Below, in pieces: positions 9,668-53,904 of a stretch of 64,000 nucleotides of DNA. Each line of letters begins with the position of its first letter. Position 1 is the first letter of the stretch. The translations under genes were made by a program, and so were the position numbers. This DNA is from Nitrososphaeria archaeon (GTDB taxonomy: Archaea; Thermoproteota; Nitrososphaeria; JACIWG01). Location of the stretch: assembly GCA_963752255.1 (NCBI GenBank), contig CAVVXT010000019.1, positions 1-64,000 of the forward strand. The letters run 5' to 3'. Below the pieces are notes generated by a model, which did no database searches, had not been told where the DNA came from, and worked only from the letters and a program-made list of their open reading frames with translations.

Positions 9668-9923
9668 AAATGTCTCCTCCTTTGGAAAGGTTTGTTTTTC
9701 TTTTGTGTATTTAAAGGTTGTCAATTTATGGGAGATTAACATTTCCCTATTTACTTAAACTGAATTTACCAGCAAAAATTGCGACTTAAATTAAATTAAG
9801 CTGCCCTTTTTTTACAATTCTGTATTATCTGAAGCCAAAATTGCAGCCGCGAGCAAGACATTAGTCACGGAGCAAAAACTAAATTCTCAGGATGCAATTA
9901 TGTCACAAGTACTGGTGACTTTG

Positions 9924-12228: not shown

Positions 12229-14102
12229 TGCTGGGTTACGCTGGAAAATTCTTGGAAGTTGACCTTTCAAATTCAAGCTTCAAAAACACAACGCTTCCTG
12301 AAGAGTGGCTAAGGAATATATGGGTGGCAGAGCGCTTGCAGCCAAAATCTTAAGCGAAAGGCTGATTCACAAATGGGAAAAAGTGGATCCTTTAGGTCCT
12401 GAAAACCTGCTGTTTTTCATGACAGGCCCCTTCCAAGGTTACTTCCCAGGCGGCAGAACATGCGTAACAGGCAAGTCGCCTCAAAGCAACGGCATGGTTG
12501 GCTCCACGGTCGGCGGCGAATTCGCAGTTGAGCTTCGATGCGCAGGCTACGATGGCATAATCGTTTCAGGCAAAGCTGAGAAGCCAGTTTACCTGTTCAT
12601 TAAAGACTCAGATGTTGAGCTCAGGGACGCTAGCGGCGTTTGGGGCAAAGACTGCAAACAAACAGACGCGTTGCTGAACCGTGAATGCCGACAGCTGCTT
12701 GCTGAACGTTATCCCCATGTCGGCGTTTGGAAGCAGCCCGCTAAACTCTACATTGGACCAGCAGGAGAACACAAGGTTAGGCCGTCAGCTGTCATCGCCA
12801 AATGGACTCATGCGGCAGGGTACGGCGGCTACGGCGCAGTTATGGGTTCAAAAAACCTCAAGGCGGTCGCGGTTAAGGGTACTGGTCCGCTTGCCTGAAG
12901 TGGCTGATATGGAGAAGGTCAAGCAGATGATTGATGACGTCTGCAGAGGCTGCTACGGTAACATGATGTGGCGCAGGTACGGAACAGGAGGAGGAGGCTA
13001 CAGCTTCGGGGCAGACACCAGTTCCGAGCCCGTTCGCAACTGGCAGGAAGAGTGGCATGACCAAAGAAGCTACGGCGTCGACCAGTTTGAGAATAGGGTT
13101 TGGGTGAAACCGGCTTGGAGCGACTTCGGTTGCCCGACGAACTGCCTCAAAATCAGCTGCATACGCGCAGGCAAATACAAAGGCGCCATAAGCGACAACC
13201 CCGACTATGAACTGCAGGCTTTTCTAGGTCCCAACTTGGGCTTGTTCACTCCCGAAGAAAACGTGTACCTGTCTTCGCTCATCGAGGACTTAGGATTCTG
13301 CGGCATCCAAGGCGGCAGCGTATTGGGCTTCGCAGCTGAACTTTTCCAAAGAGGCATCCTAACCAAAGAAGACCTGGACGGCCTCGAGTTGAAATGGGGC
13401 GACGCAGACGCTTTCGCCGCTTTGGCAAAGAAAATCGCGAACAGGGAAGGCATAGGCGACATTTTGGCTGAAGGAACATACCGAGCGGCAATAAAGCTTG
13501 GAAAAATGAAGGGCAAAAACCTCTTACCTTACGCGGTAACGGGCAAGGGCATCAGCATCGGCGCCCATGGAATCCGAAGCGGCAGAGACTTTTCACGTGA
13601 AATAGGTTACGCATGCAGCGTGCAGGGCGGCGACCACTCGTCCATGACTGACTTGCCCATTGACGGATGGGGCAGCGAGATTTGGACGATATTTAACGAT
13701 TCAGCGGTAATGTGCATTTTCACCTCGTTCAGCCTAACGCCGACGTTCCGATACGAATTCTACACCGCCCTCACTGGACAAACCTTGACCCGCAAAGGGT
13801 GGCTTAACGGCGGCGGCATGAAAACACTGCAGATACAGCGGGCTCTTCTGCTTCTCGGCGGACCAGACTTGACGTGGAACCCCAAAGTTGACGATGACAA
13901 CCCGGAGAGGTTCTATGAGCCGTTGCCGACTGGACCATGCAAGGGACAAGCCGCAGACAGGGCAAGCGTGAAGGAGAAAGTGACGCAATACTATGGGCAG
14001 GCAGGATGGGACCAAAACGGCGTACCAACGTCGGAGACACTAACTAAGCTCAAACTGGAACATGTTGACGAAAGTTTGGGCAATGGCGCATTTAGCCCAT
14101 GA
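12228..14102 (+). CDS. Tungsten-dependent aldehyde:ferredoxin oxidoreductase family protein; frameshifts near 12303 and 12892
   Basis: MLGYAGKFLEVDLS start, KSPQ, GYDGII, GAVMGSKNLKAVAVKG, CPTNC, YYGQAGWD..GVPT spread over three frames. Confidence 0.88.
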
Positions 14103-36664: not shown

Positions 36665-36902
36665 TGCCTCTCAGGGTGCTCTACGGTTCGAAGCTATTTA
36701 ATTCCTCTATCCTTGACCAGAAGTCAACAGTTCGAGACGAGTGGTTGGAATCGTTTGTCATATTAGGTTTTACAGCTGAATTTTTATAGCGATCATGTCC
36801 CACCAAAGAACTTTTGACTTAAGACCAAGCAGAATGCCAACTTAAGCAACTGTCAATTATATCTCTGTAAAGTATTAATATCATATATATGTAAAATGAA
36901 CT

Positions 36903-37535
36903 ATGGCAGATCTTCCAGAAGGGCATATTACAAGAGAGGTCTATGAAGCCAGTAGAAAACTCATCAAAGAAGCTGAGATAGCTCTTAAAAGAGGATGGTT
37001 GATCGCTGCCATCTGTGATATTTTTGGTCATAATGATCGACATGGAGCGATAGAGGCTTTCCAGCATTGCATAGAACTTAGTCTAAAATCAATGTGGACT
37101 ATTGTTGGCTTCAAATACCCAAAGGATCATAATCCAACTAAGAAATTTGAAAAAGTTGAGCAACGTTTCTTCAAATTATTACCTTATACAAAAGAAGACC
37201 CAAACTTCCCTAAGTTTTCAGATTGGGTTAGGTCAAAGGGGCGTGCCATGAAGGCTCTCCATGAGCAGACTATATATGGGGATGAAGAGAAAGGGAAGTC
37301 CGCCTCAGAGCTCTTCGACTATAACGAAATGATGCAATGGGCAGACGATGCTATTCTAATTCATCAAATTGTGTTCGGTGAGATCAAAACCATAGGCTGG
37401 AAAAATAAATTGCTGACCCCAGACGAAATCAAAGAAATGGAGCAGATATATGACAGTGTCCAGAAATGGAAGAATATACCCGCACTTGCAGATGCACTCG
37501 ATAATTACTTGGACAGAAGGTTTAAAGCAAGTTAA
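36903..37535 (+). CDS. HEPN-domain protein
   Basis: AIEAFQHCIELSLKS...YPKDHN...IYGDEE..SASELF. Confidence 0.75.
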   Translation: MADLPEGHITREVYEASRKLIKEAEIALKRGWLIAAICDIFGHNDRHGAIEAFQHCIELSLKSMWTIVGFKYPKDHNPTKKFEKVEQRFFKLLPYTKEDPNFPKFSDWVRSKGRAMKALHEQTIYGDEEKGKSASELFDYNEMMQWADDAILIHQIVFGEIKTIGWKNKLLTPDEIKEMEQIYDSVQKWKNIPALADALDNYLDRRFKAS

Positions 37536-38031
37536 GGGCTGTCAGTATCTTAAGATCCTAGAACATAAGATTGAATCCTAGTACCTGTCCCGTAGTTGTA
37601 TTCTCCACATCTCATCCTTCTTGGCCTTTTCCTTTTGCTTCTCAGCTATTCCGTTTCGCCTCTACAATTTACGGGCTAGTTAGATTTCTCCTAGGTTAAT
37701 ATAATATTCTAAAGATCTCTTTATCCCGTATGACATTTTCATTATGCTTTATTTCAAGATATGAAAACCGCTAGGAGGATAAAAAGATTGTGTTAAACGC
37801 CCTATTTAAGGTCTTGGGATTTATTCATAAATAAAATATTCTAATTTAAATGCGGAAGATGCTCCGGCCGGTATTTACACTAAAATCGGTATAAATCTAT
37901 TAATGCCATATTGTTCTTTGTCTATCAAAACATCATCCTTTTTGATTCTGAAATAGTCTCGTTGATTAAACTACTTTTCTTATATCAGATAATAAATGAT
38001 CATTGAATGTTATGGAGACCCTTACATGTCA

Positions 38032-39436
38032 TTATAAGAAATATTCCTTCGGTATTTCAAGAATTCGTTGGACAATGACTGATGTGTATTTGACATCTTC
38101 TAGTCGCAGAGTAACAATAGCTTTGTTACTAGCAGATGTCTCTCCTTCTGTTTTACGCATATATTTTGGAAAATCTCTAGCAATCCTAATCCATGGAACA
38201 TTAACTAACGTTGGAATGTCGAGCCTATTCCAAAATGAAGAATTTGTTGCCAAGTTATCATCTTCAACAAAGTTCTTTGCTACTTCCCATTTCGACGGTG
38301 TGAATCTATCATTTTCGTTTGCTACTACAACAATATTAGACACAAAATCCTTTATTCTACGAAAATTTTTTTTCATGAAGGTTTTATATTTGAGAACATA
38401 GTCCTTATGCTTTAAATAATCATCTTCATCGCTTCCCACATGTGCGATCTCCGCTCTTCTGAGATATTTGCGCCATCCCTTAGACATATTGTTCAAATCT
38501 GATTTAAAAATGGAGGAACTATGATCCATTTCTTCTAAAACCTTTAGCATATTATCAATCCTTGTTGAAGAAGGTGGATGGCCTGAAAGTAAGTCACAAT
38601 AGGTCCAAGGTTCGTATGTTAAGAATAAAAGCGGACTTGCTGGACCAACCATTATGACACTTGCAATATCACAAAGAATTTCTGTGAATTGGCCCACAAT
38701 ATGACTTAAATCATATGAACTAGCTTCTATCTAGAGGTCTACTTATTAATGCAGTTGAAAGATCTTCGAGAGGTTGCCTAAGTTCTGTGAAGACATCAGA
38801 GTAGATTTGCGTCAATTTCTGATGGGATGCTTCATGGGCAGCAGCGGCCCAACGTCTGGATCGCATAACATCCAAGTTTGGGACTCCAAAAACAAGAAGA
38901 AATCTTCCGGCAATTCTAAAATCTTGATTTGGGATACGCGCAGAAAAATCAAGAATGTCAGTTCCCGTGTGGAAAACATGAACAAAGCTATCACTTGGAC
39001 CAAAAATTGATTTCAGAAAAAACTTGAATACATGATCTAATGCTAAGAAGCACTTATCGATCTTTAGATTCTTTTTATTAAGAAAATTGATAAATTCATT
39101 ATTAAAGCGAATTTGGGATGAACTTCTCCTACGTACTGCTTCATCTTCAAAAAAAGAAAAAAGGGCTTGACCACGCGTAGTCAGTTTTTCCAGTTCAGCT
39201 AAGTCATGAAACAATTGCCGACTACTTCTGTAAGAGGACCTAGTAATTCTTTCAGCAATATTTATTAGCTCAACGGATGTAGGACTCATTAATTCTGAAA
39301 TGCTCGTAGCGTCCATAAAATCTGATTTTCTTATAATTTTATAAGAAGATCTGATTTTCTTTGCAATGTACATTGCATTTTCGACGCATTGATACCAGTA
39401 TTCATCAATATGAAAATCAGCGTTTTTAAAGGCCAT
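38032..39436 (-). CDS. HExxH zinc metallopeptidase-like protein; frameshift near 38731
   Basis: AHEASH in 38720..39436; EILCD..GP and HPPSSTRI in 38032..38697. The two frames join with one indel. Confidence 0.65.
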
Positions 39437-39445
39437 TAATACCAG

Positions 39446-39772
39446 TTATTTTTTCAGGAACTTTCTTAAACTATAATATCCACTTTTTTTATTATAGCTT
39501 ACGAAATTATGCTCTATGTATCCATTCAGTACATCATCAAAAAATCTTTTGGTATATAGCTTTCCGGACATTTCAATGGCTTCTTTTCTTAGTTGTTCCT
39601 TCTTCAGAACTCCTGACTTGCTCAAAATGCGTATAATACTTTCGCCTAAACTGGGTACAAGGATCTCTTCACCTACATTATAATAAGTTGGCGTCTTCTC
39701 TTTGGCGCGGTCAATAGATGCTTCTTTTGCGGCTTCTACGAATTTATCCTCGATATTAAGATCCCTTTTCAC
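39446..39772 (-). CDS. Small wHTH-like protein
   Basis: IIRILS...FDDVLNGYIEHNFVSYNKKSGYYSL wing. Confidence 0.55.
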   Translation of the reverse strand: MKRDLNIEDKFVEAAKEASIDRAKEKTPTYYNVGEEILVPSLGESIIRILSKSGVLKKEQLRKEAIEMSGKLYTKRFFDDVLNGYIEHNFVSYNKKSGYYSLRKFLKK

Positions 39773-39822
39773 TTTTGCTCAATAATATTATGGGGAAGAT
39801 GTATAAATACCTTTTGCCAAAT

Positions 39823-39874
39823 TGTTCTATTACCTCTCCGGTTGGCTTATGTTGGTGTTACTTTTCGGTTGATA
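39823..39874 (+). repeat. Degenerate copy of the IS6-element terminal repeat
   Basis: About 41 of 52 positions identical to 19396..19447 without gaps. Confidence 0.75.
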
Positions 39875-40062
39875 ACTTCCAGATGTTTTCGTTAACATGC
39901 GGTCGTTAATTTTCCTGAGTTCCTTGTAAACTTTATCCAATTCCTTTCCCTTCTCAACAATTTGCTCATATTTACCTGAACTCAAAGTGATAACGCCTTT
40001 AACACGGATGGATTCGATTAATTTTTCTAAGTAAGGATTACTTGTGCATATTAGAAGATTGG

Positions 40063-40329
40063 TTAGAGTAGGCCAGAAAAGAAGTTCACAAGCCTCTCCT
40101 TTTTCCTGTAGACCTCCGCCTCCTTACTCTTTATCAAGACGTTTACAAGCTCGACAAAAGGGCTGATAACCTGCTCTGTGATACAATAGTCCACAAATTC
40201 ATGCTTGAGAGTCCGAACAGCCTCATCAGGATCTGAGTCGTAGACGAAAATAGTGCTTCCTCTTACTTCACCGTGGACATCCTTGCTTTCATCAGGGATC
40301 CACTGACCTTTAAGTTGCTGTTTAGACAT
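40063..40329 (-). CDS. Small HE-motif protein (N-terminus probably frameshifted, extending to about 40390)
   Basis: WIPD...GEV...IFVYD...TLKHEFVDY. Confidence 0.5.
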   Translation of the reverse strand: MSKQQLKGQWIPDESKDVHGEVRGSTIFVYDSDPDEAVRTLKHEFVDYCITEQVISPFVELVNVLIKSKEAEVYRKKERLVNFFSGLL

Positions 40330-40445
40330 GTCACGCTTTGAAGTCTTTTCAATTCCCTTTCAAGCTCACCGTGAACATCTTTGACTTCCAGACCTTTTCC
40401 AGCTTTTTTCTACCTTCTGGACCTTACAGGGACGCCTTGGCTTCA

Positions 40446-40628
40446 TCATCTTGCATCAACCTTCTGCGCGGAAAGTTCCTTTGCCAATATGTCGAGCGCA
40501 CGTTTTAGCTGCTCTAGGGTAGGCTCTTCCTCTAAGGAAATGCTCTTGGAGAACAGGGGATGCTGGTGTACTGCCTTTTTAATAGGGTCCCAATGGTATT
40601 GGACGACCCTGATCAGGTAGAGCGTCAT
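40446..40628 (-). CDS. Small hypothetical protein
   Basis: ATGA-coupled to 40625..40831. Confidence 0.45.
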   Translation of the reverse strand: MTLYLIRVVQYHWDPIKKAVHQHPLFSKSISLEEEPTLEQLKRALDILAKELSAQKVDAR

Positions 40629-40831
40629 CGAAAACCATCCCCGTATTCTTGTACATCAGGCTTCTCGTAACAGAAGTGGGATGGTAAGGCGACATTCTTT
40701 GCCTTCCTCCTGTAGAACACGTTGTAATGCGTCTTTCTAAAAAACTCGTATAGGAGACCTTTTCTTACACGAACATGTATGGCGGTATCTGTAATTGTAC
40801 CAAACTCAGCGGATGTTCCTAAAGGTGCCAT
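40625..40831 (-). CDS. Small hypothetical protein
   Basis: 68-aa ORF behind TATATA. Confidence 0.45.
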   Translation of the reverse strand: MAPLGTSAEFGTITDTAIHVRVRKGLLYEFFRKTHYNVFYRRKAKNVALPSHFCYEKPDVQEYGDGFR

Positions 40832-41139
40832 ACTTGCTCGATAAAAAAAGAAAATGAGGTTGCTTTTTAGTATATATTTTTCGTTTCAATGATCCGCCAG
40901 AGCATTTTTGAACCATCTAACAACATGCTGAATAATATAACAATACGTCGGTTAATATAACAACACGTTTGTTAATAGGGATCTTCAAAAGGCGAATTAC
41001 ATCTACCTTTCAATGGAAGCGTACTTAAATTGAATTGGAGTTGTAACTAAACGATCTTTGCTTTACATTTCTCAACGGGTTCGTCCATATTTAGCTCTGC
41101 CCTACCATTTTCCACTAAAATCTTCTCATCCAATAACAT

Positions 41140-41928
41140 TTATCTTGCAATTCCTTCTGTTACGTTCTGAATTATGCCATAGACAATCGCCCATGGTATT
41201 ACATCAATCTCATATTCCATACTAGAATAGGCCATCGACTGCCTCCGTATTGGAAAATCAGGAAGTGCCTGCCATGGGAACGACACATTCGACATTGAAG
41301 AAGCCATTGCTGACCACATGTTAATCATCGCACTCCCAAAGGCTTTGACTGCTTCTTCATAGACTTTAGACTGTAATGCGAAGACCTTATCTGCTTGGAT
41401 AAGGTCGTTGGACGTTGAAGCTACAGTTTTACGAGGATAAAACAAATACAACATTTCGTCTAATTTCCTTAAAGCCTCAAACGTATTCTGAAGGGGTTCG
41501 ACTGCTTCATCAGCCACCTTCGCTAGCCGTTCAAATACAGATTTTTCATTATTTTCTCGCTCCACAAAAGCCCTGTGCCTTCGGACAACCCATACAGGGT
41601 CTCCCTTTGGTCTCCCGCGCGCATCGGTTTCCTGTAGCCACCACGTCCTATTCGGGTCAAGTTCTCCGAAGTATAAGTCTATTTCGTACTGTGACACAGG
41701 GCGGTCGAACATTTCAGCCATGTGAGCGTTCGGGTCTTTCGTGATAGACAAAGCGTGAGACGTGCTTTTTGCCTTTTCCCTGTAGAACAGGCCGTAACAT
41801 TTTCTATTAAGAACTCGAGATAGAAGACCTCTTCTCTTTGAAGTGGGTGTTACCTGAGGAAATACTCCGCCATCCGCTTTCCCATTTGTACTTTTTTGTT
41901 TATTCTCCATTGTTATAAGGTCATACAC
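41140..41928 (-). CDS. Hypothetical protein
   Basis: 262-aa ORF next to the trailer end of the left CRISPR array. Confidence 0.6.
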   Translation of the reverse strand: MYDLITMENKQKSTNGKADGGVFPQVTPTSKRRGLLSRVLNRKCYGLFYREKAKSTSHALSITKDPNAHMAEMFDRPVSQYEIDLYFGELDPNRTWWLQETDARGRPKGDPVWVVRRHRAFVERENNEKSVFERLAKVADEAVEPLQNTFEALRKLDEMLYLFYPRKTVASTSNDLIQADKVFALQSKVYEEAVKAFGSAMINMWSAMASSMSNVSFPWQALPDFPIRRQSMAYSSMEYEIDVIPWAIVYGIIQNVTEGIAR

Positions 41929-42031
41929 GCTTACTTTTTAGTATGTGTTGAACATTGTTGCAGTTGTTGAACGATTTTGAAATTGTTTCACAAACCTATA
42001 TCACAATAGATGGTATACATGGCTATCTTGT

Positions 42032-42593
42032 GTTTCAAATCCTTATAGGTATTCTACAAACTTTTATATATAATTGATTTGGTTCATCCCTTTGTTTATT
42101 TCAAATCCTTATAGGTATTCTACGAACATAACATTGATTTCATCTGGGATGTGCAGAATGCTGCGTTTCAAATCCTTATAGGTATTCTACGAACATAACA
42201 TTGATTTCATCTGGGATGTGCAGAATGCTGCGTTTCAAATCCTTATAGGTATTCTACAAACACGCAACCGACTATATGGCAGAGCAAGCCTACCAGTTGT
42301 TTCAAATCCTTATAGGTATTCTACAAACGCATACGTTGTGATTCCTGCGATGGGATTTTTCTTGTTTCAAATCCTTTTAGGTATTCTACAAACGAGACAC
42401 CGAACTCTTTTAACGCTACACCTACGATCATGTTTCAAATCCTTTTAGGTATTCTACAAACCTTTACACCATACAATACATTTACTGTAACACCATAGTT
42501 TCAAATCCTTATAGGTATTCTACAAACAGTAACCACTTACGCTACTGTATGGGAAAAGGAAGTGTTTCAAATCCTTCTAGGTATTCTAAAAAC
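42032..42593 (-). CRISPR. CRISPR array 1: 9 repeats (30 bp), 8 spacers (35-38 bp); leader on the right
   Basis: Repeat GTTTGTAGAATACCTATAAGGATTTGAAAC on the minus strand, at 42032, 42098, 42165, 42232, 42299, 42364, 42432, 42498 and 42564. Confidence 0.97.
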
Positions 42594-42745
42594 TGGCGTA
42601 AATTATGTTCATTTCCACATTTTAAACCTTTTTCCAAGCCAATAATCCAAATGTCCAATGTCGACCCATAAAAGCGTGATACATGAGCGTAGACCGACGG
42701 AACGTTTTTATTATCCTAACAGGCCATAAAGAAACTATAATGCGA
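42594..42745 (-). promoter_or_regulatory. CRISPR leader (copy 1), also the cas6 upstream region
   Basis: On the minus strand GAAAAAGG-TTTAAAA (BRE/TATA-like) lies about 30 bp before the first repeat. Identical in reverse complement to 49470..49621. Confidence 0.85.
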
Positions 42746-43465
42746 TTGTGCTTGGCTATGCAAAATGATCGGGGACCTACAGTTCTTCCGATCAGCTATA
42801 ACCATCTTGTCCAAGCAGCAATCTACAGCAGCATATCCCTTGAACTTTCGACCTTTCTACATAACAAAGGATATATTTATGAAAAAAGGTCATTTAAGCT
42901 CTTTACTTTCTCTAGGCTTCTTGGAAAGTACGAGATAATGCAAAATAAGATATGCTTCAAAGATAATATAGATGTCTATGTTTCTTCTCCTATTGACAGA
43001 TTTATTAAAGAAATTGCAAACATTTTACTAAAAAGAGGCCATTTAGTTTTAGGCAAACAAAAGCTTAAGATTACAAACATATCTTTCCCACTAGAGCCGA
43101 AAATAGGTACTAATGTAAGAATCAAAACACTTTCGCCAATAACAGTCTACAGCACTATGCTTTCACCAACAGGAGATAAGAAGACCTACTATTATTCACC
43201 TTTTGAAGCTGAATTTTCTAAGCTCGTCGACGCAAACGCCAAAAAAAAGTTTTATATAACAAAAAAGAGAAACATTAAATCACGTTTAAAAATGCAGCCA
43301 CTAAGAGTCAAAGAATCAATTATAATCTACAAAGAAATAGTTGTAAAAGGCTGGAGTGGATTATTCCAGTTGAGTGGGCCTAAATCTCTTATTAAAATTG
43401 TATATGAAACTGGGCTTGGAAGCAAAAACCCTCAAGGTTTCGGAATGTTTGAGGTGTTAGCATAA
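42740..43465 (+). CDS. cas6: CRISPR endoribonuclease Cas6
   Basis: YNHLVQAAIY, FLHNKGY, FKLFTFSRL, C-terminal GLGSKNPQGFG G-loop. Confidence 0.95.
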   Translation: MRLCLAMQNDRGPTVLPISYNHLVQAAIYSSISLELSTFLHNKGYIYEKRSFKLFTFSRLLGKYEIMQNKICFKDNIDVYVSSPIDRFIKEIANILLKRGHLVLGKQKLKITNISFPLEPKIGTNVRIKTLSPITVYSTMLSPTGDKKTYYYSPFEAEFSKLVDANAKKKFYITKKRNIKSRLKMQPLRVKESIIIYKEIVVKGWSGLFQLSGPKSLIKIVYETGLGSKNPQGFGMFEVLA

Positions 43466-43466
43466 A

Positions 43467-45314
43467 TTGTTGGACTCAGTTGCAAAGATAGGAGAGAGTT
43501 TGCTTGAGGAAGACTCTGAATATTTTCTGAAGAGTCTAGTTATTTATAGGAGAAAAGATGTTGATAGCACTCTACTGCATATAATAATGGATTTGGATAG
43601 AGGCGTTATAGAAAAAGAAGAATTGAAATTGACTATGGAGAGGTACGAGCATTATTTGTGGATAGGTAATACCTTCAGAGCCTCACTTGAACCTATATTG
43701 AGGCTTACCAGCGATAGATTGGAATACTTATTTAGTGAACGCAATGGAGTTGACGGAATAGTTAAGACTATTGAAGGATTCCCAGCTCAGTATCGCTCAG
43801 ACTCTGTCAATAGGCTTTACGAATACTTAAAACAAATCAGAACAATTTTTGGTAATCTGCAGAATCTATCCAAAGAATACGAAGAGGAAATGAAGAAAGA
43901 AGATGTTAAGCCTGCCCTCTATTCTATAGCTGTACGCAAAAATGGAGAAGTGTTCGATTTATCTAAAGAGAAAGGATACAAAGAGTTCTTGGAAATAGTT
44001 TTACTTCAAAAGAATAAACAAGCAAGGAAAGGAACTTGCTATCTATGTGGCTTTGATAAAGTATTGCTTGATCCTTCATTCCGTTTGGGTTCGTTACTCA
44101 AAGTTTACGTTATTGATAAGAAAGGCTTCCTTTCGGGTATTTCGGATAATGAAGAGTCAAAATTACGAACTTTCACTTTATGTTCAAATTGTTTAAAGAA
44201 GCTCTTAACAGGAGATGGTTTTATAGAAACAAACCTTAGAAGTTACATAGGCCGATTTAATCTCTATATAGTACCAAGATCAGCAACAGAGATACGTCTT
44301 TTGAAGAAGTGGGCCGATTACATAAAAGATCGAGTTGGCGCACTTAACTCTTACAATGGCCTTATTGAATTTAACCAAAAATTGAGTGACTATAGCGAGT
44401 TTGTAAATAACGAACCATTGTATTCGTTAACGTTAATCTTTGGTGAAAGGGAGCAAATTTCATCATTTAGACTATACGGCATGATTACAGAGATTCCTAT
44501 CACAAGAATGACTTCATTCACGAGCAGTGTAAGCAAAATAGCCAGAGAAATGAGTCTATTGTTTACTTTGGAGGAAAACGTTTTCAATTGCGGTCTAGCT
44601 GAGATTTATAGAATATTCCCATTAAGAAAAAGTAAAAATGGTCCTGTGAGAGAGTATAAACCGCTTCTCTCACTTTATTCATCATTATTGCAAGATTCTG
44701 AATATTCAAGAAGTGAGTTATTAAAGAGAGCCCTACTGTTTGCAAGGATTAACAAGTTTAAGCTTCATAGTTTGTATGATATAAGACAGGAGAAGAATCT
44801 TGATGTTCAACTTTGCAATGGCATATTAAAGTTTAATATCCTGCTCAAACTATTGGATAAAAGTATGGAAGTGAGTGATGTACAAGCTAATAAAAGTGAA
44901 GACTTGAAATCAGGTAACAAGATTATGAAATACTTCAACTTAATGGGATATAAAGAATGGCAGCAATCCCTATTTTTACTCGGATATCTAGTTGGTGAAA
45001 TTGGTTCACAGCAATACAATAAAGGTGATGAAAAAAAGTCAATCCTGTCAAAAATAGATTTTGATGGAATAAGAAAAGAGAAAGTTGTGATTCTTTCGAA
45101 TCAGATTCTTAAATCACTTCGAGATTATAGAGTTCTGAAATATAATGAAAAAACATATGCTGATATGAAAGAATTATTGGACAGAAATCTAAACAATCTG
45201 TATGACCCCATAATGAATACATTTTACATTCTAAGTGGTTATTCATTTTCCACATTGCAAAGAATAAAAGCCAGTTCTGCTAATATTAACAAGGAGGATA
45301 ATAATGATGAGTGA
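43467..45314 (+). CDS. cas8b: Type I-B large subunit Cas8b (Csh1-like)
   Basis: 615 aa between cas6 and cas7; CYLC...CSNC zinc site; FLLGYLVG and FYILSGY C-terminal motifs. Confidence 0.85.
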   Translation: MLDSVAKIGESLLEEDSEYFLKSLVIYRRKDVDSTLLHIIMDLDRGVIEKEELKLTMERYEHYLWIGNTFRASLEPILRLTSDRLEYLFSERNGVDGIVKTIEGFPAQYRSDSVNRLYEYLKQIRTIFGNLQNLSKEYEEEMKKEDVKPALYSIAVRKNGEVFDLSKEKGYKEFLEIVLLQKNKQARKGTCYLCGFDKVLLDPSFRLGSLLKVYVIDKKGFLSGISDNEESKLRTFTLCSNCLKKLLTGDGFIETNLRSYIGRFNLYIVPRSATEIRLLKKWADYIKDRVGALNSYNGLIEFNQKLSDYSEFVNNEPLYSLTLIFGEREQISSFRLYGMITEIPITRMTSFTSSVSKIAREMSLLFTLEENVFNCGLAEIYRIFPLRKSKNGPVREYKPLLSLYSSLLQDSEYSRSELLKRALLFARINKFKLHSLYDIRQEKNLDVQLCNGILKFNILLKLLDKSMEVSDVQANKSEDLKSGNKIMKYFNLMGYKEWQQSLFLLGYLVGEIGSQQYNKGDEKKSILSKIDFDGIRKEKVVILSNQILKSLRDYRVLKYNEKTYADMKELLDRNLNNLYDPIMNTFYILSGYSFSTLQRIKASSANINKEDNNDE

Positions 45315-46279
45315 TGTGAGCAAGAATAGTGAAATACTTTTACTGTACGAAGCTATTCTATGTAATCCTAACGGTGATCCTGACGAGGAGAATAGACCTC
45401 GCATAGATATAGTAACTAAGAAAAATCTAGTGACAGATGTTAGATTAAAACGCTATTTTAGAGATCATATAATCAACAAATATGGAGAGAAGTATATTTG
45501 GATAACAAAGATTGCTGGTAATAATGTGGATCCTGAAACGAGACTTAATGAATTAATAGGAAAGGAAAAAGATGTCGATGAAGTAAAGTTTGTTACTCAG
45601 AGATGTATAGATGCCCGACTTTTTGGAGCTAGGCATGCCCAAAAAAGCAAGAAAAGGAGTAAAAGGTGAAACTTCACATGTAACAGGACCTGTTCAGTTT
45701 TCATGGGGATATTCGCTTCATCCTGTAGAAACCGTAGAATCTTCTTCAATAACTTCGTTATTTGTGGGTAGAGAAACTGAAGGAAGAGCTTACGGTACAA
45801 TAGGAAAAGACTATAGATTATACTATTCCTTAATCGCTTTTTATGGTTTGGCTAGCGGAAATAGAGGAAAGAAGACTGGCCTTAAGGAAAGAGACCTGGT
45901 TATACTGGACCACTTACTTTGTCCTTCGCTAAAATTAGAAGCAACTACAAGAAGTAAGATAGGAGAAAATCCACTATTATACATGAGAGTTGAATACACA
46001 GAGTCGGATACTTTAATCGGTGATCTGAGACGATTTGTCAAAGTAAGTTACGAAAACGAATCAATTAGATCACTTAAAGATCTGAAAATCGATACAAGTG
46101 ACTTGGCAAGAAGACTGAATGAAAAACAAAGCACAATAAACAAAATATATCTCTGGACTGATGAATCAATTAGAGAAAGCATAATTCCAATTGAAAGTAA
46201 AATGAAAGATCAGATTATTTATGTGCCTTATGCAAAACTTAATCTTCCAGATGACCTCATAATCAAAGAAGAAAAGTAA
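45307..46279 (+). CDS. cas7: Type I-B Cas7 (Csh2); frameshift near 45632
   Basis: NPNGDPDEENRPR, TDVRLKR, DARLFGA, then TGPVQF, YSL, TRSK in the next frame. Confidence 0.9.
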
Positions 46280-46292
46280 CTGGCATTCTATT

Positions 46293-47025
46293 ATGATGTC
46301 TTTCAATTTGGAAGGGAAGATGGGGCATTTTCGGAAGTTCTATACTACTGTAACGTCATTAAGTTATGCTTTCCCTCCACGTAATACTATCTGTGGAACT
46401 ATTGCAGCTATTTTGGGCTTAGAAAGAGATTCCTATTACGATTTGCTGTCAAGAGATAGATGTAAAATAGGGATACAGATTTTAGAACCTGTTAAAAAGG
46501 TACTGTTGACAACTAATTATCTGGATACAGATGAGATAAGCTTTAGACGGCTCAGAGGTATCGGAATGAAACCAACTCGAGTCGAGTATCTGTTTTCTGA
46601 TAACGATAGATACCTTAGATACAAAATATATTTTGTTCATGAAGACAACAAGATAATGGACGAACTAAGTAAAAGGGTGAAAAGTCAAAAAATACATTAT
46701 CCAATATCTTTAGGACCTGCGCATTGCCTTGCTCAAATAGCAGATTTTGAGGAAATAGAGCCTAAAGCCTTAGTATTAGGTGATAAAACTCAACTTGGAA
46801 TACTTACAGTTATTCAGCAAGACCAGATAGTGGAAATAGATCCAAAATTAAATGAAGGAAAAAGAATAATAATCGAAGAAAGAGTTCCACCAGACTTTGG
46901 TGTAGGAAGAAAGCCAATATCATCGGCTAAGAACTATTTATATGAAGCTGCCTTGTAGTTCTATAATAGCTTCAGTAAAGGGTGAAACTTACAGAATAGG
47001 AGATAAGTATGGTGTCTTCTTATGA
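46293..47025 (+). CDS. cas5: Type I-B Cas5; probable frameshift near 46952
   Basis: GHFRKFYT...SYAFPPRNTICGTIAAILG, YPISLG. ORF stops at 46958 but a plausible tail (SVKGETYRIGDKYGVFL) runs to 47025 in another frame. Confidence 0.88.
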
Positions 47026-49424
47026 TTATTTTTCGCACCCCAACTTTCCACTTAAAGAACATCTTAAAGCAGTAGGAAAATTGAGTAGATCTAAGGCTTG
47101 GGAATTAGGAATTAGAAGTGAAAATCTACTTAAGACAATTGAAGTAATTGGTTCATTTCATGATGTTGGAAAATATAGCCTCTATTTTCAAGAATATCTC
47201 TGGAGGTAAGAAATATAATAGGGAATTGACTTCCCATTCACTTTTTTCTGCACTTTTTACTAGTTGGTTTACTGCAGTGTCATTTAATGATTCATCTTTG
47301 ACAGCATTTGCTTTTTATTCTGTATACAAACATCATAGCGATTTAAAGGATAAAGTAGAAGATGTCTTTGATAAAAGCTTTCTAAACAAAATCATCGAAA
47401 ATTATAATTATAAAGAACAGTTTGAATCAATAAGTCGATCTAAAGCAATTGTTTCAACTGAATTAGCTGAATTGCTGAAAGATGGTAACAGTTACGTCAT
47501 CATGGACAGCTTCTTTAAAGAATATGAAGCAGGTTTCCCAATTTTAAAAGATTCAATCGTAAACTTTGTAACAAGAAAGCCTAACTTTCTTAAAGATTAC
47601 TATCAATTGCTATTATTCTTTAGCCTACTTATAGATTCAGACAAAAAAGAAGCGAGCCACTATAAATCGAAGGACAGACTTGAAGTTGATTCCTCTTCAG
47701 TCGACAAGTATCTCAGTACAATGAAAAAAACAGATAGTCTGATTAATAAAATTAGACAAGATATCTATCAATCAGCAAATTCGAAGCTTATTGAATTAGC
47801 TAAGGAAAAAGAACTACCAAAGATCTTGACTATAACTGCACCTACAGGGACTGGCAAGACCTTATTATCATTCTCATTAGCACTTAAGCTTAGAAATTTG
47901 ATAAAAGAGCGTCAAGGTCTAACACCTCGTATAATTTACATTCTACCTTACATTAACATTATAGATCAAACATATGATGTTTTTAATAATGTTCTAGATA
48001 GTGGAGGAAATTTGGAACTACTTCTGAAACACCATCATCTTTTATTTGGTTCCTTAGAACCTAATGAGAACAGATCCTTAGAGGATATCACTCTTCTTGC
48101 AGAATCATGGGATTCAGAAGTGATTGTTACAACCTTTGTACAACTTTTTGAAACCCTATTTGGAACAAAAAACAGAATGTTAAAGAAATTTCATAAATTT
48201 TTTAATTCAATAATCATATTCGACGAAATTCAAACCCTTCCTATTGAATATTGGAAGTTAGTCAAAGAAGCTTTACAAACATTGGTAGAGCAGACAAATT
48301 CTTACATAATATATATGAGTGCTACTAGGCCTATAATTTTTAGTGGGAATGAGCTCATTGATAACTGGCGGAAAAATTTTAGTATGCTGAACAGAGTAAG
48401 GTTTAGATACATATCTAAAAAGTTTAGCGTAGGACAAGCAGTTGAATTTGTCTCCAATGAATGGAACAGAAGCGGTTCTTTATTGGTAGTATTAAATACA
48501 ATTGATTCTTCAATTGAATTTTATAATAGAATTAAGGATCTGCTTAGGAAAGATGGATTAGCTTTTCAAGCTCTCAATAATAAAGACATCAATGAAGATT
48601 ATGATAAAGAAAAGATTATAGTAGGCTATCTATCTACAAACCTTCTTCCTATCCATAGGAAAAAACGAATCGATCAGATCAGAGAGTTATTAAAGAAGGA
48701 TACAAAGTTGATACTTGTTAGTACTCAAGTAGTTGAAGCAGGAGTTGACTTGGACTTCGACATGGCTATAAGAGATATCGGTCCCTTCGATTCGATTGTA
48801 CAAGTTGCTGGAAGATGTAATAGAAATGGGTTAAAAGATAAAGGCAAGTTTTATGTTTTGAACTTAGTCGATGAAAATGGGAAATTATATGCCAATAATA
48901 TATATGAACGATTAGCAGTGAAAGTAAGCAGGCAAATATTCGAAAGTGAAGAAGAGTTCGATGAAAGTACAATATTGAATAAAATTAATGATTATTATTT
49001 GAAGAGCACAGCATTTCTAGGAGAAGAAAGTGACGAATACAGAGAAGCTAAAGAAGCCATAGAACAATTAGACTTTGCTAAACTGAACTCCATCCGTCTT
49101 ATAAAGAATGAACCCAAGTTTAACGCTTTCATAGAATACGATGAAGAGGCATTCAAAATCAAAGAGGAACTTCTCAAGTTAATTGATGAACGGAAAAATC
49201 CAACTGAACAAAAAAATACGACCAAAATGTACGAAATTAATTTGAAGGTTAGGAAAAAGAGAGCAGAACTTGAAAATTACATAATCTCAACATGGAAGAA
49301 CATCGAACATCTTCCCCTAATGCTTGAATTTCCAGATTTAAAATACATTAATACTGACCTTATAAACCAATATTATGATGATGAAGTAGGCTTGAAATTA
49401 AATGAGCCAATGGACATTGAATAA
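47009..49424 (+). CDS. cas3: Cas3 (N-terminal HD nuclease + SF2 helicase); frameshift near 47200
   Basis: SHP..LKEHL, FHDVGK, KHH, APTGTGKT, FDEIQ, MSAT, STQVVEAGVDLD, QVAGRCNR. Confidence 0.93.
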
Positions 49425-49469
49425 GAACAAATTTAAAAAAGAGATCAGATTTGCTTTTGCCAATAATAT

Positions 49470-49621
49470 TCGCATTATAGTTTCTTTATGGCCTGTTAGG
49501 ATAATAAAAACGTTCCGTCGGTCTACGCTCATGTATCACGCTTTTATGGGTCGACATTGGACATTTGGATTATTGGCTTGGAAAAAGGTTTAAAATGTGG
49601 AAATGAACATAATTTACGCCA
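49470..49621 (+). promoter_or_regulatory. CRISPR leader (copy 2)
   Basis: 152-bp exact reverse complement of 42594..42745; TTTAAAA at 49589..49595. Confidence 0.85.
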
Positions 49622-50119
49622 GTTTTTAGAATACCTAGAAGGATTTGAAATTTCGGACTAATCGCTATACTACTCATGATTGTCGGAGTTTGTAGAATAC
49701 CTATAAGGATTTGAAACTTGTTAGTTGTGGCTTCAATCATTTGGTTAGATGGAGTTTGTAGAATACCTATAAGGATTTGAAACGTTGGAACCGTGACTGT
49801 GAACGTTTAGTTTTTCTGCGTTTGTAGAATACCTAGAAGGATTTGAAACTAGTAGTAATCTATGTTAGTTATGTTGTTGTCAATTGGGTTTGTAGAATAC
49901 CTAGAAGGATTTGAAACATCCATCCAAGACGGAAGACGTAGATAAATTCGGCGTTTGTTTGTAGAATACCTAGAAGGATTTGAAACTATCCTACTATCGC
50001 TTCAGCTCATGAAGGAGTCGTTAGTTTGTAGAATACCTATAAGGATTTGAAACGCATATATGGATAGAGGTGGAAATCTAATCTTTGGTCGTTTGTAGAA
50101 AACTATAAGGATTTGAACC
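49622..50119 (+). CRISPR. CRISPR array 2: 8 repeats, 7 spacers (36-39 bp); last repeat degenerate
   Basis: Repeat GTTTGTAGAATACCTA(T/G)AAGGATTTGAAAC at 49622, 49688, 49754, 49820, 49888, 49957, 50024 and 50091. Confidence 0.97.
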
Positions 50120-50415
50120 ATCTAAACCGTACTTTTTGGACTTAACCTGTTTTGGCTAGATCTCGTCGGGCACGCAATTGCTTATGCATAATTTACTGGT
50201 AAATTAGGGTTCAAATCCCACTTCACGCAACCGATTTATTTTTGATTTATTCATGCCAAATAAGTAAAACTGGGAGTTAGCCTAATAGCCCATCTGGGTT
50301 TTGGAGTAACACGTGTTTGATCTAAGTAATGAAGGAGTTTATACGCTGATCGTTTTGTTTCTTAACATAATTCTGTTGTGACCTTTACCTTAATTGAGCA
50401 AAGATGTCGCTGTCC

Positions 50416-51276
50416 CTAACATGCCTCCACGTTTGTTTCACGCCAGTCCTTTCCTAGCTTGAAAGTGAATCTGCTGCTGCAGCTTCTGTCCAATTGCTCG
50501 CTAACTTCATGGGAATATTCTAAAGTTGAAAGCAGTAGTATCACCTGTCTGTGTCTGCTGACTGCCAAAATCATGTCTACAAAACTATCCCTTAATCCAT
50601 CTCCCATTCCGGCTAGAGGCGCATCCATCACAATAGGCACATTAAACGCTGACGCCTGATGTGCGGCCAGCTTAAATGATAGCGTGAGCAGTCGGCGTTC
50701 TCCAGAAGACAAAATTTGGCAATTGTTGTATCTCATGTTATTCGGTTTAGAGGTGGAGTAGTCTTCGTCAGCATTGATGTCGGCGAAGAGTTTTTTGTTC
50801 GAAATCAGGTAAAGCAGTTCTCCCGCTCGAGACATGGTTTCCCGTCTGATCCTGTCCCCTGTGAGCTTCTTTTTCTGCCTCATTACGGTGAGGACGTTCC
50901 CGTAGGATTCTATCTGCTCTGTGCTGGTTGAGTTAAAGTAGCCGGCGTGTCTGTAGACCCTGAACAGGACCTTCCTCGAGAAAAGGAAATATCTGTCCCC
51001 CTCTGTAGCCAATAGTTCTACTACGACCTGCCTGGTCTCCCATGTTGTCTGAGGCTCCAGCGGCGTTGTCGTTCAGGAGAGGTGATTGCTGCTGATCTGA
51101 ATGTTGAGACTCGTCGCCGTAGAGGCACCATCTGATTGCGTTGAGCAGGTTCGTCTTCCCAACGCCTCCTCCTCCGACGAAGATGTGGAGGTCGTTTCTG
51201 CCAGGCTTCCTGCCGAGAGGGATTTCCGTGTCCCTGTACTGCATAAAGTTTTTGAGTGTAATCCTCTCAAACCTTA
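50416..51276 (-). pseudogene. Short Rad50/SbcC/DndD-like ABC ATPase, split by a frameshift near 51010
   Basis: LKNFMQY...GGGGVGKTNLLNAIRWCLYG (Walker A); LSSGE signature, PIVMDAP Walker B/D-loop, QVILL; almost no coiled coil. Confidence 0.7.
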
Positions 51277-51620
51277 ATGCTGCTCACCGTGTTCTTTCGT
51301 CAACATCTATGTACCCACTGTATACACCTTTTACTGATAGGTCTTTTTATAAATCTAAGATAGTAATTAAAACAGGTGTCTTAGATGTATAAGCTACTAC
51401 CATGGTAGGGAGGCTCTTTCACAAATCAAAAAATGTCAAATTGCATACTATTATGTGGTAACGAAGGCGACCTAAATCATCACTAGCTTCTTAGGCTCCC
51501 TTTTTTAGGCTAGTCCTCTATTATCCCACGTGTTCCTATCTTTTATCGCCCGAATACGATTATATTTCTGGCTTAATGAGCATTGATTCCAGCTGTTCTG
51601 TTCAAACTTCGGAGCTTGGT

Positions 51621-52301
51621 TCAGATGTAACCGAGTCTCTCCGCGATGTCCACGAAGTCAGCACGCATCTTCTCTTTTGTTTCATTGTTAAATCCACTTG
51701 AGCAGTATTTCTTTATTAATTCTGCTGTCCACTCATCCTTTAACTTTTTTCCTCTCTTTTTGCCTTGTAATTCTTGGATGAAACACATATAGGTTGGGAG
51801 TTGAAAATGCTTTGCGTTTGGATACTGTCGAGCAAGGGATTCTGTAGCCCTCAGCTTTCTCTTGAACTCTATCTTACTTTCGACCTCGGGTGTTTGAGCC
51901 ATTTCAAATTGTAGTGTCTGCTCTTTACCTTTCAGTTGGGACAGCAACTCGTCCCAGCATACCCTATACTCTTGGAAGAACGTATCTTTATACGCAATGT
52001 AAATTGCTTGGTCTAAAGCAGAGAAGACTTGCAGAGACCCCCTCACCCATTCTCTAGACACTTCTTCTTCAGCTTCGTCCAAAACAACATGGAAAAGGCA
52101 ATACTTCACGCCTTCTTTTTCGTAAGCAGACTCCGCCCAATTCATCACCGTCTTAAAATCGCTGATGCTGGATCTCCAAGAGTCATGAACGTAGCCTTCC
52201 TCAAAACCATCAATTTTGGAATCTATCGCTTTCATCTCATCATCTGAAAGCCTGATCCCAATTGAATGTGCAAGTTTCCTATGAGTGGGCCATCTTGGCA
52301 T
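51621..52301 (-). CDS. Putative metal-binding hydrolase-like protein
   Basis: MPxWxTH...ID...HD...HxxLD pattern. Confidence 0.55.
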   Translation of the reverse strand: MPRWPTHRKLAHSIGIRLSDDEMKAIDSKIDGFEEGYVHDSWRSSISDFKTVMNWAESAYEKEGVKYCLFHVVLDEAEEEVSREWVRGSLQVFSALDQAIYIAYKDTFFQEYRVCWDELLSQLKGKEQTLQFEMAQTPEVESKIEFKRKLRATESLARQYPNAKHFQLPTYMCFIQELQGKKRGKKLKDEWTAELIKKYCSSGFNNETKEKMRADFVDIAERLGYI

Positions 52302-52503
52302 CTGATTTTCCCCTAGAATCTTGCCCTTTTGGAACTTATTAACACTTAACCAATCGAGATGGAAAAATCTGACAAAATAGAATTAAAAGGGTTCCCAAGT
52401 TGGCTCAAAATGAAATAAAAGAAAGTGAAGATGAGATAACACCTATGAAAAATTATTGGATATATACTTAAATATAGGTGAAGAATAAATTAAACCGAAT
52501 GTA

Positions 52504-53286
52504 ATGAGTAGTTCTAAAAATGGAAATCATGGTATTAGAAATATTGTTATCGTTTTTATCGCGGTTCTTGTAATTATTGTAATCCTCTTGATTCCTGTAA
52601 TACCCTTCGATTATAAAGTCGAAACAACAACAGTAACAACCCAGACTGACACGATACCGACGTCGACTATCCAAACAGTCTTGATATCGACAGAAACCAC
52701 CATTACCAACACGATACCGACATCTCAAATAGTAACCGTAACCGTTCCAGTTCAGACGGCCCAAAGCCGAAGTCAAACTCTGCTTAACTTGGGTTCCTAC
52801 ACACTGCAAGCAAACTATTACTATTCTAGCTATGGTCAAGTACCTGCTGGAAGTGATATTGCAATAACTTGGAGTGCAAGTAATACGGTCAACGTTTATG
52901 CCTTCACTTCAGACCAATATAGTGTGTACACAAAGAACAGCGGTAACGCAAACCCTATCGTTTCACAGAAAAATGTTGCAAGCGGGACCCTTGGATTCCA
53001 TGCTTCAGCATCGGACACGTACTACATTGTCATATTTAATCCTCACAGCACTCTCTTTGGCTTGATAAAAGAGGATGTAGGAATCTATAGTGCTAACGCA
53101 GTTGCTACATGGCAGGAAACAGTTACTACCACCACGACCCAAGTACAAACGATAGCTACGTCCACAACTACGATTCAAACGATACCTACGTCCACAACTA
53201 CGATTAAAACAGTAACTAATATACAGCCTGTGCCAAAACGGACCATGATAAGTTTACTTGACTGGCTACTCGGGATACATCCATAA
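52504..53286 (+). CDS. Membrane-anchored Thr-rich surface protein with central beta-sandwich domain
   Basis: N-terminal TM, two Thr-rich tracts, YYIVIFNP. Confidence 0.75.
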   Translation: MSSSKNGNHGIRNIVIVFIAVLVIIVILLIPVIPFDYKVETTTVTTQTDTIPTSTIQTVLISTETTITNTIPTSQIVTVTVPVQTAQSRSQTLLNLGSYTLQANYYYSSYGQVPAGSDIAITWSASNTVNVYAFTSDQYSVYTKNSGNANPIVSQKNVASGTLGFHASASDTYYIVIFNPHSTLFGLIKEDVGIYSANAVATWQETVTTTTTQVQTIATSTTTIQTIPTSTTTIKTVTNIQPVPKRTMISLLDWLLGIHP

Positions 53287-53904
53287 ATATAATCATTGGA
53301 TTTAAGCTAATAAGATTTTTCTTTGAATAAGAAACACTAAGGTAAAACGGAGTTTCAAGCACATGATACAAATTATTTATGCAATCTCTTACCTTTTATA
53401 TTCTGATTTTGTTAACCCTATGTCTAATCGTGGCGCGTTAATAAGTGGATTACCATTCTATAAAGCGAAATTATTGAATATCATAGCCGAAATGACACGT
53501 TTATCACATAGCAGATAAATCTTAACCATGAGGACTAAACTCTTCTCACGAAAGCGTCTACTTTCTAAGCTCTTCTGGCGTAAACTGCAGTGCTACCTTC
53601 CTCCTTTCCTTCCTTCGAAGGTTGAGCGGTCTGCCCTGAGTCAGCAGCTTCGTGTAGTACGCATGCCACGGGATAAAAGGATTATGTTGAGCGCCCTACA
53701 ATATTCTGACTGATTAAGGCTTTGTTATTTTTATCTATTTTTCTATCATTTGGACTTTCTTCTGATTTATAATTTATGTTATCAGTACGAAAAAGCGGCC
53801 AGTCGAAGCTTCTTATCCAAAGCCTCATAGAGTCGAAGTGAAGGAAAGCTTTCGTCATAAGTTTATTAATATTAAATGTGAAAACAGAGATTAAGGTAAA
53901 CGAT

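Follow-up and report, generated by a model that had tools for sequence, protein, structure and literature searches.

A 64,000-nt stretch of the genome of a Nitrososphaeria archaeon (positions 1 to 64,000 of contig CAVVXT010000019.1, assembly GCA_963752255.1; hereafter the window) contains a CRISPR locus in which a type I-B cas operon is bracketed by a perfect inverted repeat and by two arrays that face outward. We consider this locus to be best explained as a paired CRISPR locus built around a horizontally acquired, interference-only I-B cassette, in which the inverted repeat would be a recently duplicated leader/promoter module and a by-product of the history of the locus, not a switch (probability roughly 0.72). 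The genome as a whole is a draft of 2.1 Mb in 19 contigs that is 94.67% complete, and the contig carrying the locus (C19) is 608 kb long.

A scripted comparison showed positions 42565-42745 to be the exact reverse complement of 49470-49650 (181/181 bases), as an earlier note on this DNA had claimed, and a repeat search extended the pair without gaps to 192 nt at 98% identity (42565-42756 and 49459-49650). The two arms enclose cas6-cas8b-cas7-cas5-cas3. Each arm consists of 29 bases of the 30-base first repeat of an array, a leader of 146 nt that is identical in the two arms (146/146), and the six bases ATGCGA, which are the first two codons of cas6; the earlier note had counted the 29 repeat bases correctly, and its 152-bp leader comprises the 146-nt leader together with these six coding bases. 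The left arm (42565-42745) ends after codon 2 of cas6, the ATG of which lies at 42740, and the homology of Cas6 to its relatives begins at residue 1. The right arm (49470-49650) is the same sequence inverted, and is separated from the cas3 stop codon (49422-49424) by 45 bp. Both of these inner boundaries had been described in the same way before and agree with the gene positions.

In terms of the arrays, the left one (42032-42593, minus strand) has 9 repeats and 8 spacers, and the right one (49622-50120, plus strand) has 7 spacers and 7 repeats (49622-50053), after which comes one further, degenerate repeat at the terminus (50091-50120), with both arrays running away from the cas genes. They share the repeat consensus GTTTGTAGAATACCTATAAGGATTTGAAAC, the left copies of which appear reverse-complemented on the plus strand. 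Two arrays of one repeat family are therefore found in inverted orientation with the cas genes between them and with related predicted leaders at their cas-proximal ends, which is the arrangement of a paired locus. The 8 left and 7 right spacers have no common substring of 9 nt or more, which bears out the earlier claim that the arrays share no spacers, and the sole identical pair (L6 and L7) lies within the left array, where a 67-bp repeat-spacer unit is exactly duplicated in tandem (42099-42232) with the repeat variant GTTCG in both copies. The repeat search found no repeat in common between the distal flanks of the two arrays, no further copy of the array repeat was detected elsewhere in the 19-contig genome at a tolerance of 6 substitutions, and when 42565-49650 was searched against the genome as DNA, the two arms and the array repeats were the only matches. 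No viral contig contained 25 nt of the array repeat.

The genes between the arms were called from Pfam and NCBIfam profiles, and all of them lie on the plus strand. The first two are intact: cas6 (42740-43465, 241 aa) scores 120 bits against PF01881 and 133.1 bits against TIGR01877 (cut-off 58.65), and cas8b/csh1 (43467-45314, 615 aa) scores 219 bits against PF09484 (cut-off 25.1) and 124.1 bits against TIGR02591 (cut-off 104.05), with 145.4 bits against TIGR02556 falling under the cut-off of 156.95. The other three are frameshifted when judged against the closest relative, a locus (L014) on contig CAYQCW010000004.1 of a Nitrososphaerota metagenome-assembled genome. Specifically, cas7/csh2 (45304-46279) is interrupted between approximately 45631 and 45661, leaving open reading frames (ORFs) 45304-45669 and 45611-46279 that score 84.9 and 118.1 bits against TIGR02590, neither piece reaching the whole-protein cut-off of 171.55, as the gene is in two parts. 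The main ORF of cas5b (46293-47024 in all) occupies 46293-46958 and gives 92.7 bits against TIGR02592, slightly under the cut-off of 97 and with the C-terminus out of frame; the frameshift near 46950, which places the last ~23 residues in another frame to approximately 47024, is indicated by a weak tblastn match (E 0.53) and by a by-eye comparison with the L014 C-terminus. In cas3 (HD and helicase; 47009-49424) the frameshift lies near 47196-47206, such that a 66-aa N-terminal ORF (47009-47209) holding part of the HD domain is in a different frame from the ORF at 47148-49424; Cas3 scores 137.6 bits against TIGR01587 (cut-off 102.45) and 31.2 bits against the HD model TIGR01596, under its cut-off of 43.45. 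Judged by these profile matches, which cover Cas8b, Cas7, Cas5b, Cas6 and a Cas3 with both helicase core and HD nuclease, the cassette is assigned to subtype I-B.

Absent from the locus is the adaptation module cas4-cas1-cas2 of a type I-B system. The 94.67%-complete genome gave no match to the Cas1, Cas2 and Cas4 families (PF01867, PF09827 and PF01930), and a tblastn search of it with the Cas4, Cas1 and Cas2 proteins of L014 returned nothing below an E value of 0.1; the locus is an interference-only I-B derivative. The expectation in the earlier note that cas4-cas1-cas2 normally follow cas3 is upheld by the relatives, as cas4 stands directly after cas3 in 10 of the 10 loci that reach past cas3 among the 15 related loci compared (L014-L028), the other 5 ending earlier. 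Moreover, cas4, cas1 and cas2 are all present in the three in-class relatives (G165, G038 and G015; 3/3), and cas4 is found, alone or with cas1-cas2, in all 13 judgeable relatives. A relic of Cas2 in the right arm was considered and rejected, the three-frame translation of 49380-49640 being unlike the C-termini of the relatives' Cas2 proteins. The earlier mirror-image description thus holds for the geometry of the locus, and had missed both the genome-wide loss of the adaptation genes and the frameshifts in cas7, cas5 and cas3.

With respect to transcription, we infer from the sequence that each arm is a bidirectional module, with an outward promoter for the precursor of the CRISPR RNAs (pre-crRNA) and an inward promoter for cas6 that is followed by its ATG. 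In the left leader (42594-42739, minus strand, 146 nt), which contains the motif pair CGTCGG...GGTCGAC common to the leaders of relatives, the TATA-like sequence TTTAAAAT (42619-42626, minus strand) precedes the first repeat by 25 nt and is predicted to act as the pre-crRNA promoter. Facing the other way, a second TATA-like box, TTTTTATTAT (42705-42714, plus strand), falls within the inner 45 nt of the arm and 25 nt upstream of the cas6 ATG, and is predicted to serve the cas6 operon. L014, L019 (a locus on a metagenome contig) and L020 likewise have T-rich TATA-like boxes, 27-30 nt ahead of the start of cas6, and TTTTTATTAT is accordingly a plausible cas6 core promoter, the transcript of which would be leaderless or nearly so. 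The inward TATA-like box of the right arm (49501-49510, minus strand) faces only a 25-codon ORF, and transcription from it is predicted to run antisense into the 3′ end of cas3. A sigma-70 promoter scan gave 2 sites against 1.5 expected, with a model that is not meaningful for an archaeon.

Several features of the relatives and of the repeat itself lead us to read both arrays as transcribed outward from their cas-proximal leaders. Wherever a relative has sequence beyond cas2 (6 of 6: L014, L015, L019, L022, L023 and L024), cas2 is succeeded after ~100-120 nt by an array of this repeat family, which lies on the cas strand in the GTTTG...GAAAC reading, and in L014 and L019 the intervening stretches are leader homologues of the window arm; the position and orientation of the right array are therefore the canonical ones of these relatives. 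The leaders of the window arm, L014 and L019 also have in common the pattern CGTCG[G/A]TC, 24-25 nt, GGTCGAC and a TTAAAA-type box. Degenerate or truncated repeats stand at the distal end of the arrays in L015 and L024 and of the right array of the window. When the repeat is taken in the GTTTG...GAAAC reading, its final 8 nt agree at 7 of 8 positions with AUUGAAAC, the 5′ tag that has been measured on I-B CRISPR RNAs (crRNAs; Richter 2012, PMC3479195; this and all other papers are cited here from excerpts of their text).

The half-site pair in these leaders, CGTCGATC and GGTCGAC separated by 24-25 nt, is partly palindromic and is located in leaders of this I-B family at their cas-distal end (49516-49555 in the window, ~17806-17850 in L014 and ~8846-8890 in L019). 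Its sequence makes it a candidate protein-binding site or hairpin.

The identity of the two arms points to copying within the locus. The first repeats of both arrays carry GTTTTT and CTAG, and the second repeats of both carry GTTTGT and CTAT. Each spacer acquisition duplicates the first repeat of an array. Because the second repeats lack the variant, spacer gain would have ended in both arrays by the time it arrived, and we infer that the variant passed from one array to the other by a copy event after the last acquisition; such a halt in acquisition fits the loss of cas1, cas2 and cas4. The 45-bp joint between cas3 and the right arm (49425-49469, minus strand) may preserve an earlier stage, as the 21 nt adjoining the arm (49449-49469) match codons 3-9 of cas6 at 12 of 21 positions. 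Read on the minus strand together with the arm codons, the joint gives MRILLAKAN against MRLCLAMQN (12/21 nt, p ~0.002, with the length compared chosen post hoc), which suggests that an older copy of the leader-cas6 junction had diverged here before its homogenisation over 181 bp.

On this basis, recent intra-locus copying, by gene conversion or recombinational repair, most likely made the arms identical, and would have replaced a right-hand copy that was older and had diverged; by then the last spacer would have been acquired and cas4-cas1-cas2 lost from the locus. As proposed, the left module would drive both the outward left array and the cas operon, and the right module would drive the outward right array, its inward promoter yielding nothing but a transcript antisense to the 3′ end of cas3. 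In both arms the pre-crRNA would start ~25 nt downstream of TTTAAAAT, and the crRNAs would carry an 8-nt 5′ tag of UUUGAAAC. Homologous recombination between the arms could flip the segment 42746-49469, and the result would be an equivalent operon: since the predicted promoter and the first two cas6 codons lie inside the arm, a flipped operon would keep the same promoter and start codon, in keeping with the earlier statement that inversion would leave cassette and promoter unbroken. The equivalence of the two isomers is what would make the repeat a by-product of the history of the locus as opposed to a switch.

Horizontal acquisition of the cassette is indicated by its composition and distribution. 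Its GC content is 33.5% as compared with ~43% in the flanks, and a genome of the same genus (G001) matches the flanks at 90-97% and is without ~36760-53700 of the window, its flanks lying on different contigs. A relative of Cas8b occurs in only 4 of 401 genomes of the class, the present one included, and the closest Cas8b homologue, in a Nitrososphaerota metagenome-assembled genome, is 52% identical. Together, low GC, the gap in G001 and the rarity of Cas8b in the class give the cassette a foreign appearance. At the DNA level, neither cassette nor leader was found in any of the 40 nearest genomes (0/40), the sole foreign matches being two ~30-nt chance matches in one genome (G016). The surrounding 17-kb stretch (~36760-53700) is a variable island of 36.9% GC against ~43% in the flanks, with ORFs that are mostly without a family, and no integrase, transfer RNA gene or att site was found around it (transfer RNA scan of 36-56 kb; Pfam scans of the ORFs around the locus). 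Pfam and PADLOC searches of 20 flanking ORFs yielded only a weak HEPN match, SnoaL/thioredoxin/CBS genes, a marginal PDC-S26 match and the remnant of a PbeC/DndD-like gene. As for the host, archaeal AmoA (family f5) is present in 10 of 10 sampled genomes of another family of the same class and in none of the 9 sampled from the host's own family, and the host itself is without it; it belongs to a non-ammonia-oxidising lineage of a class that includes ammonia oxidisers.

The frameshifts in cas7, cas5b and cas3 suggest that the cas genes are probably decaying. The cassette makes up 10.4% of the window and holds 3 of its 5 confirmed frameshifts (binomial P 0.0097; outside the cassette, the count draws on only some of 24 candidate ORF pairs). 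Over 8.5 kb of flanks, a few short indels separate the window from G001 (1 bp in four cases and 2 bp in two), every one of them outside the ORFs, and this scarcity argues against heavy indel noise in the assembly. The PbeC/DndD-like defence ATPase remnant (50416-51244, minus strand) covers profile positions 13-73 and 502-619 of 622 in two overlapping frames and lacks the middle ~430 residues; such a loss is a deletion and is not to be put down to indel error, which shows that genuine decay takes place in the island. Elsewhere in the window, a serA-like 2-hydroxyacid dehydrogenase gene with an ACT domain (9900-11104) is frameshifted near 10650-10750 and an aldehyde:ferredoxin oxidoreductase gene (12305-14102) near 12884-12900, in both cases outside long homopolymers.

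One spacer matches the genome of its own host. Spacer R5 (49918-49956) agrees at 35 of 39 bases with C17:22293-22331 (~10294-10332 of L037), inside an ORF that has a weak FtsK/TraG-type P-loop match and stands among small ORFs of no recognised function, in a region that may be an integrated element. The target is flanked by TGG on the 5′ side and GAAAC on the 3′ side in the outward reading, and by TTC on the 5′ side in the opposite reading. A self-match beside broken cas genes would fit decay driven by autoimmunity.

Four observations weigh against parts of the interpretation given above. The cas frameshifts may be assembly errors, as the serA-like and aldehyde:ferredoxin oxidoreductase genes of the same window are frameshifted too. 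The 12/21 match in the joint may have arisen by chance, given that the length compared was chosen afterwards. With respect to array direction, the Rfam model CRISPR-DR2 matches the repeats on the opposite strand, with scores of 28.7-35.1 bits that all fall under the gathering score of 37; the direct-repeat models of Rfam are not known to be curated for transcription direction. Finally, the only protospacer-like match, that of R5, has TGG on its 5′ side in the outward reading and TTC if read oppositely, and TTC is a known protospacer-adjacent motif of the Haloferax I-B system (PMC3460438).

Among other explanations for the mirror layout, the one closest to our own is that the two orientations of the cassette coexist through recombination of the RecA/RadA type, with the same recombination keeping the arms identical. 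Flip-flop isomerisation between inverted repeats is known from plastid genomes. Perfect inverted homology over 181 bp would favour such a process, and the placement of the predicted promoter and ATG within the arm would leave both isomers functional. Related events are documented elsewhere: in Haloferax I-B, flanking arrays have been shown to recombine through their leaders and repeats (PMC3460438), and a paired CRISPR locus was inverted with its flanking genes in one Salinispora subclade (PMC4223832). However, the single assembly presents one orientation only, and the identity of the arms is equally explained by one recent event. We therefore hold ongoing isomerisation to be a tentative possibility, and one that adds to the copying model more than it excludes it. 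Somewhat more doubtful is a further version of the same idea, in which the mirror layout would be an orientation-neutral, deletion-proof design. The leader module would act as a compact bidirectional promoter present in inverted orientation on either side, and recombination between arms, or between the repeats of the arrays, would flip the cas cassette, where the direct layout of Haloferax loses its cas cluster. Both isomers would be present in the population, with the arms held identical through copy correction, and from the spare inward promoter an RNA antisense to the 3′ end of cas3 would arise.

That the symmetry is an artefact of assembly or polishing, with differing leaders homogenised or the cassette mis-joined or mis-oriented across the repeat, we judge unlikely. 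The draft state of the genome (19 contigs) and its frameshifted housekeeping genes invite the suspicion, and short-read graphs can be reasoned to be unable to fix the orientation of a segment enclosed by an inverted repeat. Nonetheless, both inner junctions are unique sequence and so must exist in the data, the right array is placed and oriented as in relatives, the flanks show few short indels over 8.5 kb relative to G001, and the independent genome G015 has the same mirror layout. Far less probable is a programmed invertible switch, an inverton-like device for phase variation of cas or crRNA expression, although a gene cassette bracketed by inverted repeats is what an inverton would look like. 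No dedicated recombinase stands beside the repeats: for tyrosine recombinases, Phage_integrase (PF00589) has no match on the 608-kb contig and only 4 matches in contigs C3, C5 and C8, for serine recombinases, Resolvase (PF00239) has none in the genome, and Pfam scans of the ORFs at ~36.9-55.7 kb of the window revealed no recombinase. By the logic of the sequence, expression would also not depend on orientation, because with start codon and predicted promoter inside the repeat the two orientations are equivalent and there would be nothing to switch. The least credible reading, in our view, is the suggestion in the earlier note that the cassette could move between arrays as a repeat-bounded mobile unit. 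Its terminal inverted repeats are all that speaks for this, whereas no transposase or integrase lies in or beside it, the supposed terminal repeats are leaders of the ordinary kind, with homologous leaders in relatives, and 0 of 18 related loci (L014-L028 and L038-L040) show such a cassette inserted in an array.

Returning to the paired locus with a copied leader/promoter module, its overall architecture has precedents. Oppositely oriented arrays around cas genes have been called paired loci, "as often observed in Archaea", in connection with the I-E loci of Salinispora (PMC4223832), and the family I loci of Sulfolobus islandicus have two oppositely oriented arrays that flank internal cas genes (PMC3718332). 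The present locus resembles both in having one repeat family, opposite arrays and cas genes between them. It differs in that the enclosed genes are an I-B interference cassette with the adaptation genes absent genome-wide, and in that the leaders are 100% identical, with identity continuing into the predicted cas6 promoter and the start codon. In Haloferax volcanii, which shares with the window the I-B subtype, arrays on both sides of the cas cluster and highly similar leaders, arrays P1 and P2 flank the cluster in the same orientation and recombination between them deletes it (Fischer et al. 2012, PMC3460438). Direct arrays thus result in deletion there, whereas inverted arrays would result in inversion here; H. 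volcanii also keeps cas1, cas2 and cas4, which the window genome is without. The two loci form a natural contrast, in which direct arrays permit loss of the cas genes and inverted arrays would make recombination a harmless flip.

A closer parallel is found within the class. The earlier note had suggested looking for the same architecture in relatives, and a mirror layout is present in G015 (locus L040), where the cas genes have an outward array on either side, the inverted repeat made up of leader and first repeat measures 149 nt, and cas6 begins ~150 nt from the first repeat and divergent from one array. In that genome, however, the leader repeat is 81% identical (100% here), the adaptation genes are present, the genes form two convergent operons (cas8b-cas7-cas5-cas3 and cas6-cas4-cas1-cas2) and Cas8b is 28-35% identical. 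More generally, a second array beyond the far side of the cas genes occurs in 2 of the 8 relatives that have at least 500 nt there (L016 and L040). The closest homologous loci, L014 and L019, share with the window the order cas6-cas8b-cas7-cas5-cas3, the repeat family, the leader motifs, a TATA-like box before cas6 and a Cas8b that is 52% identical, but they continue with cas4-cas1-cas2, a leader and an array, and have cas7 in one frame; in L014, moreover, the 9.2 kb upstream of cas6 hold no array. Integrated mobile elements of Thaumarchaeota also carry type I-B CRISPR-Cas (Krupovic et al. 2019, PMC6563490). These resemble the window in belonging to the same archaeal group and to variable, compositionally foreign DNA, and differ in having complete adaptation and effector modules, whereas no integrase or att sites were found around the island in the window.

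The architecture is therefore already known, and what is particular to this locus is the 100% identity that reaches into the predicted cas6 promoter, the genome-wide loss of adaptation genes and the probable decay of the cas genes. We found no paper on this particular locus in a literature search that was not designed to prove absence from print; the excerpts of PMC3973734 and PMC5389559 hold no passage on paired arrays for the terms searched, and in PMC4524480, as excerpted, "inversion" refers to spacer order and not to cas cassettes. The locus offers a clean worked example of the copying of a leader and first repeat after acquisition had ceased, as deduced from sequence alone, with cas4-cas1-cas2 lost. 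If both orientations exist, it would be a small case of flip-flop recombination and concerted evolution in an immune locus; otherwise, it would be an ordinary I-B island, horizontally acquired and probably in decay, in a non-ammonia-oxidising lineage that has been little studied.

Some further observations concern the related loci. One uncultured archaeal metagenome-assembled genome (CALIKS01) contains three distinct I-B loci of the family (L015, L016 and L017) with differing repeat variants, and in L016 an array lies upstream of cas6, divergent from it and 470 bp away. The array of L019 (8950-9542) contains the same spacer twice (~9046 and ~9476) as well as one double-length "spacer" of ~66 nt, the size of which suggests a lost or mutated repeat.

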